Shown in pieces: positions 1,285-46,232 of a stretch of 46,232 nucleotides of DNA. The stretch comes from a virus. Its lineage: Duplodnaviria; Heunggongvirae; Uroviricota; Caudoviricetes. Position 1 is the stretch's first letter. Every line of letters begins with the position of its first letter. The notes below the pieces were generated by a model, which was not told the origin of the DNA, did not search any database, and worked only from the letters and a program-made list of their open reading frames with translations. The DNA lies in the IMG/VR virus record IMGVR_UViG_2778261384_000001, one strand, 5' to 3'. A program made the position numbers and the translations under genes.

Positions 1285-2069
1285 AATTCACAGGTGTTTT
1301 TTCCCATCCTGTGGTTTCCTTGGCGTTTTCTAGGTTTTTTCAGATAGTTGCATTTTTTAAAAAGCATCCTAAGTTCGATCTCAGTGTCTATCTGGGGCCT
1401 ATTTCTGTCCCATATATGCCCCAAAAAAACTCCCCAACAGATAAGTAGTTTTTTCATGGATTTATGCGTAAAATCAAGAACGGCTGGAAATCATTCAATA
1501 CTCACACTATCGAAAAATTTACCAGCCAACCGCAGCACGTTCTTGCATAAGGCGTGTCTGCGGTTTTTCAACTATTCAGATACATCACTCCCATCACATT
1601 CATTCCTCCGCATCAAAGGCATATAGGCTATATCACCTTGATATTTTTCTTTTTCAGATAAAAACTGTTATCTATGTATACTTTTAAACCCAATCCGTGT
1701 AGAGTCTCTGCATAAGATAGTTTGCAGTTGCCGCTTCAGCTTGCGCCATAAACCGCCTGATTTTTGCTGCCACCTGTTAGCATTCCTGTATACCTGAAAC
1801 GACAATGTTTATCTACGAACTTTAAGAACACCCAAGATAAAAATTGTCAACTATATCATATATAACACATTACTAATTCGAGGCTATATGAACAGCATAC
1901 TGATAATCACTTCTCTCCTTATCATATTCAGCATTTTTAGTCATGCCCTAATAAAATTAGGGATTGGCATATCCAATAACCCAGACAAAACCGATGTATA
2001 AGTCAACATATCCTGAATCAGACATACAATATCGCAATGAAAATCAATAATATTTTAAGGAATATCTTC

Positions 2070-2303
2070 ATGAAATCAAAAGACACCCTAAAGTGGTTCC
2101 CTGCGCAGCTTCCTGAAGTAAGAATTATCCTAGGGGATGCTGTAGTGGAAGTAGCAAAACAGGGAAGACCTATCAATACCAGAACATTGCTTGATTACAT
2201 TGAAGGAAACATAAAGAAAAAATCATGGCTGGATAACAAAGAATTATTACAAACAGCGATATCAGTTCTTAAAGACAACCAAAATTTAAATGGTAAAATG
2301 TAA
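2070..2303 (+). CDS. ydfK: small prophage cold-shock-induced protein YdfK/YnaE family (77 aa)
   Basis: Protein MKSKDTLKWFPAQLPEVRIILGD... recognised; ATG 2070 with AAGGAA RBS; the ORF-track start at 2037 is probably upstream of the real start. Confidence 0.75.
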   Translation: MKSKDTLKWFPAQLPEVRIILGDAVVEVAKQGRPINTRTLLDYIEGNIKKKSWLDNKELLQTAISVLKDNQNLNGKM

Positions 2304-2619
2304 TATAATAAACTTACTTTTTTATCATTTTTCCACTTTAACAACATTTTGCTCCACTTTTCCACGATCAAACAACTTGAAATCTGGTTAAAATAACACG
2401 CAACACTATTCTTCTTCCTTGAGTCCGCCCGGAACTCGAAAAACAAACCGAGTTAAAGCCATTTTTCACAAAATCGATTTTGGGTCTCACCAAAATTACG
2501 GGGTTGCATACGCATTCGTTTATTTTCGAACGTGTACATACAAATATGCACAAAAATAATCAAAATTATTTTCTGAGATGCATTATGATATGAACACCAA
2601 TTTCGTATAGAGTCTCACT

Positions 2620-3210
2620 ATGTCTCGAATTTTTGCTTACTGTCGGATATCAACGCTGGATCAGACCATCGAAAATCAACGCCGGGAAATCGAAAGTGCA
2701 GGTTTTAAAATCAAACCTCAGCAAATAATCGAAGAACACATTAGCGGCTCAGCAGCAACCAGTGAGCGTCCTGGTTTTAACCGGTTGCTTGCTCGCCTGA
2801 AATGTGGTGATCAATTGATTGTGACAAAACTGGATCGCCTTGGTTGTAATGCAATGGATATCAGGAAAACAGTGGAACAACTGACCGAAACAGGTATCAG
2901 AGTGCATTGCTTAGCATTGGGGGGCATTGACCTGACCAGTCCAACAGGAAAAATGATGATGCACGTAATTTCAGCAGTCGCTGAATTTGAACGAGACCTT
3001 TTACTTGAACGCACTCATTCCGGGATAGTAAGAGCCCGCGGCGCAGGGAAACGTTTTGGTCGACCACCTGTGTTAAATGAAGAACAGAAACAGGTGGTAT
3101 TCGAACGAATTAAGTCAGGTGTAAGTATAAGTGCCATTGCCCGGGAATTCAAAACCTCGCGGCAAACCATTTTAAGAGCCAAAGCAAAACTTCAGACACC
3201 TGACATATAA
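2620..3210 (+). CDS. pinQ: serine recombinase, Pin/Gin/Hin-family DNA invertase (196 aa)
   Basis: N-terminal resolvase catalytic motif (YCRISTLDQ), C-terminal HTH; position next to tail fibre genes. Confidence 0.9.
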
Positions 3211-3307
3211 AAAATAATCTCGGTGTGAGATGCTTTACGTCTTCCAAGCCCCCTTCCTTGCCGTAAATGGAAAGATACATCTAATTATAGAATTTATATG
3301 TTTTACC

Positions 3308-44593: not shown

Positions 44594-44665
44594 TGTTCAA
44601 CTGTCGCCGGTTGTGACTGGTATTCTGCAACCGGCGCTCGTCTGATGTAAGAGATAAAGAAATCG

Positions 44666-44917
44666 ATGAGCGAAGTAATCATGATTGTCTCTCCCGGCAA
44701 ATGGGTATCCGAAGAGCAGTTAATTGCGCTGAAAGGAATAAAAAAAGGTACGTTAAAAAAGGCCCGGGAAAAATCGTTTATGGAAGGAAGGGAATATAAG
44801 CATGTCGCTCATGACGGTATGCCATGGGATAACAGTCCATGCTTTTACAACCTGGAAGAAATTGATCGCTGGATTGAGCGCCAGGCATCAGCAAGACCAA
44901 GACGTCATCTTACTTGA
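44666..44917 (+). CDS. xis: excisionase-like DNA-binding protein (Xis), start may be 44681
   Basis: Small basic protein immediately upstream of integrase; GREY-containing segment resembling lambda Xis. Confidence 0.65.
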   Translation: MSEVIMIVSPGKWVSEEQLIALKGIKKGTLKKAREKSFMEGREYKHVAHDGMPWDNSPCFYNLEEIDRWIERQASARPRRHLT

Positions 44918-44951
44918 CTAAAAGCCACACTAACTAATGAGAGAAGTTGAA

Positions 44952-46232
44952 ATGAAATATCCGACAGGCGTGGAAAACCATGGAGGGAAATTACGTATCT
45001 GGTTTGTTTATAAAGGCGTAAGAGTCAGGGAAAATCTGGGGGTTCCTGACACAGCAAAAAACAGGCGCGTTGCAGGTGAACTACGCTCCTCTGTTTGTTA
45101 CGCAATAAAAACTGGTGTTTTCGACTATGCAAAACAGTTTCCCTCCTCACGCAATCTGGAAAAATTTGGTGAGGCCCGACAAGATTTAACCATAAAAGAA
45201 CTGGCTGAAAAATTTCTGGCACTGAAAGAAACTGAAGTCGCCAAAACATCACTCAACACATACCGTGCCGTCATCAAAAATATCCTGAGCATAATCGGTG
45301 AAAAAAATCTTGCCTCATCGATTAATAAAGAAAAATTACTGGAGGTTCGTAAAGAGCTACTGACTGGATACCAGATCCCCAAAAGTAACTATATTGTTAC
45401 ACAACCAGGGAGATCGGCTGTAACTGTAAATAATTACATGACAAATCTTAACGCCGTGTTCCAGTTTGGTGTTGATAACGGTTACCTGGCAGATAACCCG
45501 TTTAAGGGGATCTCGCCATTAAAGGAATCAAGAACCATTCCGGATCCTCTTTCGCGGGAGGAATTCATCCGTCTTATCGATGCGTGCAGAAATCAGCAAG
45601 CAAAAAATTTATGGTGTGTTTCTGTTTATACTGGCGTTCGCCCTGGTGAGCTGTGTGCACTTGGATGGGAGGACATAGATCTGAAAAATGGAACAATGAT
45701 GATCAGGAGAAATTTAGCAAAAGACCGTTTCACGGTACCAAAAACACAGGCGGGAACCAATCGGGTCATTCATCTTATTAAGCCAGCAATCGACGCTCTC
45801 CGGAGTCAGATGACATTAACGAGACTGAGCAAAGAGCATATCATTGATGTTCACCTCAGAGAGTATGGCAGAACAGAAAAACAAAAATGCACCTTTGTTT
45901 TTCAACCTGAAGTGTCAGCGAGAGTAAAAAATTATGGTGACCATTTTACCGTTGACTCAATAAGGCAGATGTGGGACGCAGCGATAAAACGTGCCGGACT
46001 CCGCCATCGAAAATCATATCAGTCGAGACATACTTATGCCTGCTGGTCGCTGACAGCTGGTGCTAACCCGGCATTTATAGCAAACCAGATGGGCCATGCA
46101 GATGCGCAAATGGTATTTCAGGTATACGGAAAATGGATGTCTGACAACAATAATGCACAGGTAGCTTTGTTAAATACACAGTTAAGCGAGTTTGCCCCAA
46201 CCATGCCCCATAACGAAGCAATGAAAAATTAA
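44952..46232 (+). CDS. int: tyrosine site-specific integrase (about 426 aa)
   Basis: C-terminal catalytic region with R...HxxR...Y signature (SRHTYACWSL ... MGHADAQMVFQVYGKW); ORF ends at window edge. Confidence 0.9.
   Translation: MKYPTGVENHGGKLRIWFVYKGVRVRENLGVPDTAKNRRVAGELRSSVCYAIKTGVFDYAKQFPSSRNLEKFGEARQDLTIKELAEKFLALKETEVAKTSLNTYRAVIKNILSIIGEKNLASSINKEKLLEVRKELLTGYQIPKSNYIVTQPGRSAVTVNNYMTNLNAVFQFGVDNGYLADNPFKGISPLKESRTIPDPLSREEFIRLIDACRNQQAKNLWCVSVYTGVRPGELCALGWEDIDLKNGTMMIRRNLAKDRFTVPKTQAGTNRVIHLIKPAIDALRSQMTLTRLSKEHIIDVHLREYGRTEKQKCTFVFQPEVSARVKNYGDHFTVDSIRQMWDAAIKRAGLRHRKSYQSRHTYACWSLTAGANPAFIANQMGHADAQMVFQVYGKWMSDNNNAQVALLNTQLSEFAPTMPHNEAMKN

Follow-up and report, generated by a model that had tools for sequence, protein, structure and literature searches.

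A Qin-type lambdoid prophage in ydfJ of Escherichia coli that appears genetically complete

Introduction

Prophages at the Qin site of Escherichia coli vary greatly in size: elements of 11 to 97 kb have been catalogued in 189 strains, and the larger ones carry structural genes (PMC6379469). Functional phages related to Qin have also been published (PMC10448788; PMC9928086). Here, we compare these systems with a DNA of 46,232 nucleotides, IMG/VR virus record IMGVR_UViG_2778261384_000001 (the window; all positions refer to it unless another sequence is named). The window is a piece of E. coli chromosome in which a lambdoid prophage occupies positions 1276-46232, with the host gene ydfJ as the insertion target. 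Of 5426 complete E. coli genomes, 1080 have at least 80% of its first 25 kb (truncated ydfJ and most of the structural module), and 297 have at least 80% of the other 21 kb, in which regulatory, lysis and recombination genes predominate. A preliminary description had taken this prophage for an apparently intact Qin-like element. Our comparison suggests that it is very probably a genetically complete temperate lambdoid siphophage genome of about 45 kb in ydfJ, the undecayed form of the K-12 Qin element. Because functional Qin-like phages (mEp460_ev081 and Tritos) and prophages at the ydfJ site, including their size range, are already documented, this finding is correct but not new: the element is of a known kind. 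The window would show what K-12 Qin looked like before its decay, and the significance of this beyond annotation is small.

Functional Phages Related to Qin

The best described relative is Tritos (OV696610), prophage 3 of the adherent-invasive E. coli strain LF82. It is induced spontaneously, yields DNase-protected DNA, forms a plaque on MG1655 hsdR-, and has been imaged as siphovirus particles (PMC9928086). Tritos resembles the window in Int (99%), Xis (100%), the arms of its attP and its cos, and its module from the small terminase subunit (TerS) to J is 93-100% identical in amino acids except for Z, which is only 80% identical. It also has the lysis genes, Q, the FRG gene, dicB and DicF of the window. 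It differs in having another CI and Cro, an ImmA/IrrE peptidase, a replication protein with 31% amino acid identity and a different set of side fibres, and in lacking rem and lom.

In mEp460_ev081 (LR597641; ev081 below) and mEp460 (NC_019716), the head and tail genes are 92-100% identical to those of the window at the amino acid level. In addition, ev081 shares the stf/tfa architecture, pin, ydfK, int, xis, the exonuclease gene (100%), Rem (100%) and the O-like and YdaT-like genes. Unlike the window, these phages have TerS at 42% and the large terminase subunit (TerL) at 87% identity, which indicates a different packaging specificity, and they are heteroimmune (DicA 58%, DicC 70%), with Q at 40%; the early region and integrase of mEp460 itself are unrelated to those of the window. 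The phage ev081, with its dicAC, dicBF and rem, has been cited as a functional temperate phage (PMC10448788), and mEp460-like temperate phages have been cultured from infant-gut E. coli (PMC6969025).

HannyBb (PP925841) has the int, xis, exonuclease, orf205, YdaT-like, O-like, rem, Q, lysis, terminase, head and tail genes of the window, but is heteroimmune (DicA 58%) and has fibres of the Tritos type. PhiR42_1 (PV340562) has the same DicA (99%) and DicC (100%), with Q, ydfU, tfa, pin and lom at 98-100%; unlike the window, it carries a true lambda-type head (separate Nu3, D, E, FI and FII), relBE-flxA and a transposase. No paper on PhiR42_1 was found in the literature, and its status as a working phage comes from the GenBank record alone. 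The circular gene order of Tritos, HannyBb and ev081 is that of the window.

Lambda itself has the same overall gene order, the same Pfam families of tail genes (Z, U, V, G, T, H, M, L, K, I and J), Lom, Stf/Tfa, a gpA terminase, a portal of the same family and a cosN-like 12-mer in the same position. The window departs from lambda in the head, where a fusion of ClpP protease with capsid and a cement protein stand in place of lambda C/Nu3/D/E, and in its short repressor consisting of a helix-turn-helix (HTH) domain and accompanied by an antirepressor, its P21-type holin and its single O-like replication gene.

Integrity of the Gene Complement

We defined 57 open reading frames (ORFs), of which 56 belong to the prophage, and compared each with the stop-to-stop ORFs of Tritos, mEp460, HannyBb, ev081 and PhiR42_1. 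None of the 57 contains an internal stop. Every prophage gene has an end-to-end match of at least 94.5% amino acid identity in at least one of the five phages, except that the 986-residue product of the side tail fibre gene stf is matched end to end at only 76-77%. In nucleotides, 44433 of the 44948 prophage bases (98.9%) reach an identity of 90% or more with one of the five; the sole gap in this coverage, 4578-5092, lies within stf. Judged by such matches, the prophage is a mosaic of segments known from Tritos, mEp460, ev081, HannyBb and PhiR42_1. The preliminary description had claimed that all genes needed for a lambdoid virion and life cycle are present and uninterrupted, and this holds: each part of its list was located, and gene-by-gene alignment turned up neither a frameshift nor a premature stop, nor an insertion sequence (IS).

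The components found open and present are the attachment (att) core, int/xis, DicA/DicC, the O-like module, Q, a pinholin-type lysis cassette, cos, a gpA-type terminase, a lambda-family portal, the ClpP-capsid fusion, the tail genes from Z to J, and Stf/Tfa. Each module occurs in a single copy, with one cos and one int, in a phage-sized length of about 45 kb. For the genes among these components, Pfam matches exceed the curated cut-off except for the W-like adaptor and the O-like replication protein. Nearly all assignments of function are backed by Pfam or PHROG matches; no family match was found for the W-like adaptor or Rem in these searches. The 20 genes from TerS to Stf/Tfa, which make up full head and tail sets, all have open, full-length frames, none of them broken by a frameshift, stop or IS. 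The repressor/Cro switch, the replication initiator and Q are likewise all full length compared with their phage counterparts.

The head and packaging module (18947..25949) lies on the minus strand, and all its proteins are 99-100% identical to those of Tritos or mEp460. It comprises TerS (25422-25949; Pfam DUF1441), TerL (23314-25413; GpA_ATPase and GpA_nuclease), the W-like adaptor (23105-23317; 100% identical to phage adaptors), the portal (21597-23105; Phage_portal_2, lambda family), a 675-residue fusion of ClpP protease with major capsid protein (19625-21652; CLP_protease and Phage_capsid_4), the cement protein (19215-19538; Phage_cement_2) and a 91-residue head-completion protein (18947-19222; Gifsy-2). 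The cos site that the preliminary description had listed was located at 26134-26145 on the minus strand, with the cosN-like sequence GGGCGGGAGCGT (lambda: GGGCGGCGACCT), which departs from lambda cosN at 4 of its 12 bases. A search of the window with the lambda cosN pattern, allowing up to two mismatches, found no site; the placement comes from the ends of the Tritos record. This linear GenBank record starts with GGGCGGGAGCGT, corresponding to window position 26145 on the minus strand, and ends at 26146. As in lambda, the site precedes the small terminase gene by about 180 nt. Since TerS and TerL are 99% identical to those of Tritos and the 40 nt on either side of the Tritos record ends are identical between the two, the terminase and cos are a matched pair; the element thus has a cos with matching small and large terminase subunits.

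The tail genes (7578..18935), also on the minus strand, are all full length and at least 94.5% identical in amino acids to a phage counterpart, and each matches the lambda-family Pfam model: Z (18357-18935), U (17959-18360), V (17205-17948), G (16758-17144), T (16420-16749), the tape measure H (13383-16448), M (13054-13383), L (12346-13044), K (11597-12340), I (11052-11600) and J (7578-10991), the last with a C-terminal receptor-binding domain. The overlap of G and T is intact and holds GGAAAAG. Stf (3883-6843, minus strand) shows Pfam phage_tail_N, fibre repeats and Collar, and its end-to-end matches are those of ev081 and PhiR42_1. The assembly protein TfaQ (3308-3883, minus strand; Caudo_TAP) is 96-99% identical to its counterparts in the same two phages.

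Comparison with Qin of K-12

The relation to K-12 Qin was examined by aligning MG1655 1629000-1656000, in which Qin is annotated at NC_000913.3 1632277-1652745, to the window. Six collinear blocks of 94-99% identity emerged, corresponding to window positions 1-4079, 4244-4577, 26951-35272, 39283-40691, 41209-42888 and 45073-46232. The gene order is the same in K-12 at the left (ynfT-ydfK-pinQ-tfaQ-stf), in the middle (ydfO-gnsB-ynfN-cspI-lysis-cspB/F-ydfT-ydfU-rem-hokD) and at the right (dicC-dicA-ydfA-dicF-dicB-ydfD-exo-int). DicC and DicB of K-12 are 100% identical to those of the window and DicA is 99% identical in amino acids. The window Int is orthologous to the K-12 integrase, with 97% amino acid identity to the surviving intQ fragment. 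The element therefore carries both an intQ-orthologous integrase and the dicA-dicC/dicF-dicB locus, as a Qin-type prophage does.

There are three large differences. K-12 Qin lacks window 4578-26950, that is, most of stf, lom, all tail and head modules, the terminase and cos, a loss of about 22 kb of structural genes relative to the window. It has relBE-ydfV-flxA-ydfW at window 35273-39282, where the window holds the FRG, DUF977 and O-like replication genes together with the 3' portion of the ydaT-like gene. Finally, an IS2 remnant takes the place of window 42889-45072, which contains the 3' end of the exonuclease gene, xis and the 5' end of int. In view of the six collinear blocks and these three differences, the preliminary description was right both that the gene order is that of K-12 Qin, which the alignment bears out block for block, and that K-12 Qin has lost most of its structural genes. 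The alignment thus supports the reading of the element as the full-length counterpart of K-12 Qin.

Integration Site

How the element sits in the chromosome can be read from its left end. Positions 1-1284 (minus strand) hold a truncated host ydfJ with 427 of its 455 codons, labelled ydfJ "missing N-terminus" in the RefSeq annotation of relatives; the gene is interrupted at codon 29, and the prophage separates its first 28 codons and promoter from the rest. In the RefSeq annotation of relatives the region sits between ydfI/ydfJ and rspB. The junction of host and prophage at the tail-fibre end is marked by an 11-nt att core, GAAATCCATAA, at 1276-1286. The same 11-mer recurs 38 nt past the int stop codon in two relatives, L002 (at its positions 27278-27288) and L009, and in K-12; the L009 core carries a single-nucleotide polymorphism (SNP). 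The window core is identical to the other-junction core of relatives. In the attP of Tritos, the sequence following int is joined to the sequence that follows the core in the window, with GAAATGCATAA between the two arms. K-12 has the same ydfJ insertion and the same junction core, and its annotated Qin start is the base equivalent to the window att core. Joining both host flanks with one copy of the core gives an ORF for a 455-residue YdfJ, and this empty site is found as contiguous sequence in 2011 of 5426 genomes, Nissle 1917 included, with an intact ydfJ beside rspB. Because of the core match in relatives, the Tritos attP and the restored ydfJ, the prophage start given in the preliminary description, 1285, has to be moved to 1276, the first base of the core.

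The insertion in ydfJ between ydfI and rspB, at the Qin att core, is a further Qin-type feature of the element. A tRNA gene as integration target was considered and rejected, as the window contains no tRNA gene and the target is the ydfJ coding sequence. The window ends at the int stop codon; the other prophage end would lie about 48 nt further, giving a genome unit of about 45.0 kb. One att core is inside the window, and the second is placed beyond it from relatives only.

Is the Element a Viable Phage?

The element is likely to be a viable phage, and several points weigh against this reading. The window stops short of the second att site and of the last 48 nt or so of the prophage. Identities to proven phages are 95-100%, not 100%, so missense or regulatory changes are possible, and the modules are not combined in exactly this way in any proven phage of the set. 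A close phage match is missing for the middle of stf (4578-5092); side fibres are dispensable in lambda. Immunity of the window type, with this DicA/DicC, is met only in PhiR42_1, which is known just by its GenBank record. No helicase-loader gene of the P or DnaC type was recognised in the replication module, and the same YdaT-like/O-like/DUF977 module is present in HannyBb, ev081 and PhiR42_1.

The alternative is that the prophage was grounded recently and, with all frames still open, can no longer complete its cycle. The cause might be a mutation, missense or regulatory, a defect in the second att site beyond the window, or a mismatch of modules (immunity, Q, terminase versus cos). Decay at the Qin site is common: K-12 Qin has suffered three large losses, intQ mutations are frequent according to Ramisetty and Sudhakari (PMC6379469), and the closest full-length genomic relative, L009 (99.6-99.8% nucleotide identity), has not only the SNP in its att core but also an IS100 (istA/istB; NZ_CP148378.1 3517491-3519292, positions 27592-29393 of L009) in the gene for the 91-residue head-completion protein. 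This relative was accordingly rejected as proof of an intact lineage, and among the sequenced free phages none was found with precisely these modules together. However, the window copy of the head-completion gene is uninterrupted, and 0 of the 56 prophage genes have a stop, frameshift or IS. Identity to the HannyBb proteins is 99.5% for Int and 100% for Xis. The two terminase subunits are 99% identical to those of Tritos, and cos agrees exactly over the 40 nt to each side of the Tritos record ends; the att core of the window is the one at the other junction in relatives. We regard such a grounded prophage as unlikely.

Far less probable still is a composite, either of two adjacent or nested prophages or of chimeric assembly. 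Super-integration is reported to have produced elements of up to 97 kb at the Qin site (PMC6379469), and the best complete-genome match of the window differs by half (H1 for 1-25000, H16 for 25001-46232): the first of these stretches agrees with strain Z1322HEC0003 at 100% identity, the second with strain Z1323HEC0067 at 99.7%. A composite is at odds with the occurrence of each module once, with one cos and one int in about 45 kb, with the circular gene order common to Tritos, HannyBb and ev081, and with L009, a finished genome that besides its IS100 has the same order end to end. The IS100 of L009 is in its own right a fresh example of how such elements turn defective.

Immunity Switch and Induction

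If the element is a complete phage, how would it leave lysogeny? The repressor DicA (39860-40267, plus strand; 135 residues) matches Pfam HTH_3 and Phage_CI_repr only, and the Cro-like DicC (39546-39776, minus strand) matches P22_Cro; they are 99% and 100% identical, respectively, to those of K-12 and PhiR42_1. An S24 peptidase or autocleavage domain was not found in DicA by Pfam, only the HTH domains, and DicA has been reported to have no Ala-Gly cleavage site (PMC10448788). The LexA box CTGT-N8-ACAG occurs nowhere in the window, and none is visible upstream of rem. A relaxed LexA scan gave at best 13 of 20 bases, inside ydfU, a score equalled or beaten in 65 of 200 shuffles and hence at chance level. 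SOS control through LexA was rejected on these scans; the element has neither of the two marks of an SOS-inducible phage, an S24 repressor or a LexA box at the antirepressor.

The antirepressor of DicA, Rem (34635..34886, minus strand), is 100% identical in amino acids to Rem of ev081 and HannyBb and 96% to that of K-12. In K-12 Qin, Rem functions as an antirepressor and DicA/DicC form a bistable switch, with about 1% of cells flipping spontaneously and more with urea or heat (PMC10448788). Given the HTH-only DicA, the lack of a LexA box and this literature on K-12 Rem and DicA, the route of induction is probably the DicA/DicC switch with its antirepressor Rem, or instability of DicA. Mitomycin C is probably not the right inducer; as the repressor is of the DicA/Rem type, a mitomycin C test may be negative even for a viable phage, and in practice induction tests should not lean on it.

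The following outline of the life cycle is suggested by homology. During lysogeny, DicA would silence the left (ydfA...dicF-dicB...exo-xis-int) and right (dicC-ydaT-O) operons. Lysogeny would end when Rem displaces DicA or when DicA fails spontaneously or thermally, upon which DicC would lock the switch; no RecA-mediated cleavage of the repressor is expected. Int and Xis would then recombine the two GAAATCCATAA cores, restoring ydfJ. The O-like protein would initiate replication, and Q would switch on lysis and morphogenesis. The terminase would cut GGGCGGGAGCGT and the head would be filled with about 45 kb, followed by lysis with pinholin and endolysin. The cargo (DicF/DicB, Hok/Sok, Csp genes, Lom and FRG) would move with the phage. 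These steps of excision, replication, late transcription, packaging and lysis we infer from the homologies of the genes.

The stronger proposal, that the phage is viable and that its induction is SOS-independent and governed by Rem together with the intrinsic instability of DicA, is tentative, and we consider it possible without favouring it. If it were true, the heat-, urea- and stationary-phase-responsive expression of DicBF in K-12 would be a fossil of a non-SOS induction pathway, and a strain with the intact element would be a natural system for finding the signal that triggers Rem.

Early, Replication and Recombination Genes

In the early right region on the minus strand lie a DUF977 Ren-like gene (37632-38054; 95% amino acid identity to Tritos), the O-like initiator (38095-39060; PHROG 391, replication initiation O-like, E 4e-95; no Pfam match) and a YdaT/CII-like gene (39041-39562; PHROG match). 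The region (37632..39562) also matches PHROG 163 and PHROG 142. The O-like and YdaT-like proteins are 96-98% identical to those of HannyBb, ev081 and PhiR42_1.

The early left operon on the plus strand (40434..42029) is 98-100% identical to phages in amino acids and contains ydfA (40434-40589), orf205 (40549-41166; PHROG 35040 over its whole length), the small RNA DicF (41427-41478; Rfam, 72.5 bits), dicB (41653-41841) and ydfD (41838-42029). The 205-residue product of orf205 is 99% identical to a HannyBb ORF, and its first 48 residues are K-12 YdfB. The gene is uncalled by RefSeq in a relative, where it is flagged as a truncated ydfB pseudogene; K-12 has ydfB and ydfC.

Downstream are the genes for an 823-residue exonuclease (42122-44593, plus strand; Rv2179c-like), the excisionase Xis (44666-44917, plus strand; DUF1233 excisionase) and the tyrosine integrase (44952-46232, plus strand), in which both the arm-binding (Arm-DNA-bind_2) and the catalytic domain (Phage_integrase) are recognised. 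The three proteins are 99.5-100% identical to those of ev081, Tritos and HannyBb. Xis is as well conserved in Tritos as in HannyBb (100%). The exonuclease, often labelled exonuclease VIII, corresponds to the K-12 pseudogene ydfE in its intact form; its sole Pfam domain is a C-terminal Rv2179c-like DEDD 3'-5' exoribonuclease fold, and no RecT-like annealase gene adjoins it among its Pfam- and PHROG-annotated neighbours.

Lysis Genes and Q Region

The lysis cassette on the minus strand consists of the holin gene essD (30353-30568; P21 holin S), ydfR (30037-30348; DUF1327), the lysozyme gene rrrQ (29507-30040; Phage_lysozyme) and the spanin gene rzpQ (29013-29510; DUF2514). Embedded in the last is the Rz1 lipoprotein ORF rzoQ, which is open and has the lipobox LTSC. 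The element thus has a holin, an endolysin and spanins. The Q region (32473..34568, minus strand) contains the late regulator Q (ydfT, 32473-33225; Antiterm), ydfU (33239-34288; DUF968/HNH, matching Pfam DUF968) and an ORF of 92 residues (34290-34568), all 98-99% identical in amino acids to PhiR42_1.

Invertase and Left-End Genes

Between ydfJ and the fibre genes, three genes on the plus strand, the accessory genes ynfT (1888-2001) and ydfK (2070-2303) and the serine invertase gene pinQ (2620-3210; Resolvase and HTH_7), are 99-100% identical to their phage counterparts in Tritos, HannyBb and PhiR42_1. Pin-type inverted repeats flanking stf/tfa (3308-6843) were looked for and none was convincing. 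A Pin-invertible fibre segment was rejected, as there are neither flanking inverted repeats nor an alternative fibre C-terminus, and pinQ is apparently an orphan invertase, like its K-12 counterpart. Tritos and HannyBb retain just a 36-residue remnant of the window-type tfa beside their pin gene. An Rfam match to IS009 (227 bits) at 3342-3540 on the minus strand lies wholly within the tfaQ coding sequence; it probably reflects a candidate small RNA family derived from K-12 that is really part of tfa. On the other side of stf, the outer-membrane protein Lom/Ail (6908..7507, minus strand), a moron, matches the whole Pfam profile Ail_Lom (E 2e-123).

Morons and Cargo

The preliminary description had pointed to DicF/DicB, Hok and FRG genes as cargo, and these are indeed present; together with Sok and the cold-shock genes, they ride on an element that is probably still mobile. 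A cluster of morons (26522..28650), named after the annotation of relatives, comprises ybcW-like, DUF1398 (ydfO-like), gnsB, ynfN, ynfR, ynfQ and cspI and is 100% identical in amino acids to Tritos. Between Q and the lysis genes are ynfU and the cold-shock morons cspB and cspF (30738..32051; 99-100% to HannyBb and K-12). Leaders of the cspA thermoregulator type precede cspI (28411-28796, minus strand) and cspB (31307-31699, minus strand) on their 5' sides. At least four genes of the prophage belong to the cold-shock family (ydfK, cspI, cspB and cspF). In the LF82 lysogen, cspI and cspB rank with the most strongly expressed genes of Tritos (PMC9928086).

The toxin locus hokD/mokD (35103..35427, minus strand) is accompanied by the antisense RNA sok (35253-35427; Rfam, 114 bits). 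The mok/hok frame (35103-35315, minus strand) has its full 70 residues and is complete in the window, whereas it is truncated in K-12 Qin; the truncation of K-12 mok by the relBE insertion was noted by Ramisetty and Sudhakari (PMC6379469).

Between hok/sok and the replication genes, on the opposite strand, lies the gene for an FRG-domain protein (36060..37394, plus strand; Pfam FRG), 98% identical in amino acids to that of Tritos. It matches the PADLOC candidate family PDC-S15 (E 7e-99) and is thus a candidate anti-phage defence gene. Where the window has this gene, the annotation of the homologous prophage region in other strains lists an AIPR-family protein or a deaminase; if these share the FRG slot, there would be a hotspot for defence genes or morons at this place.

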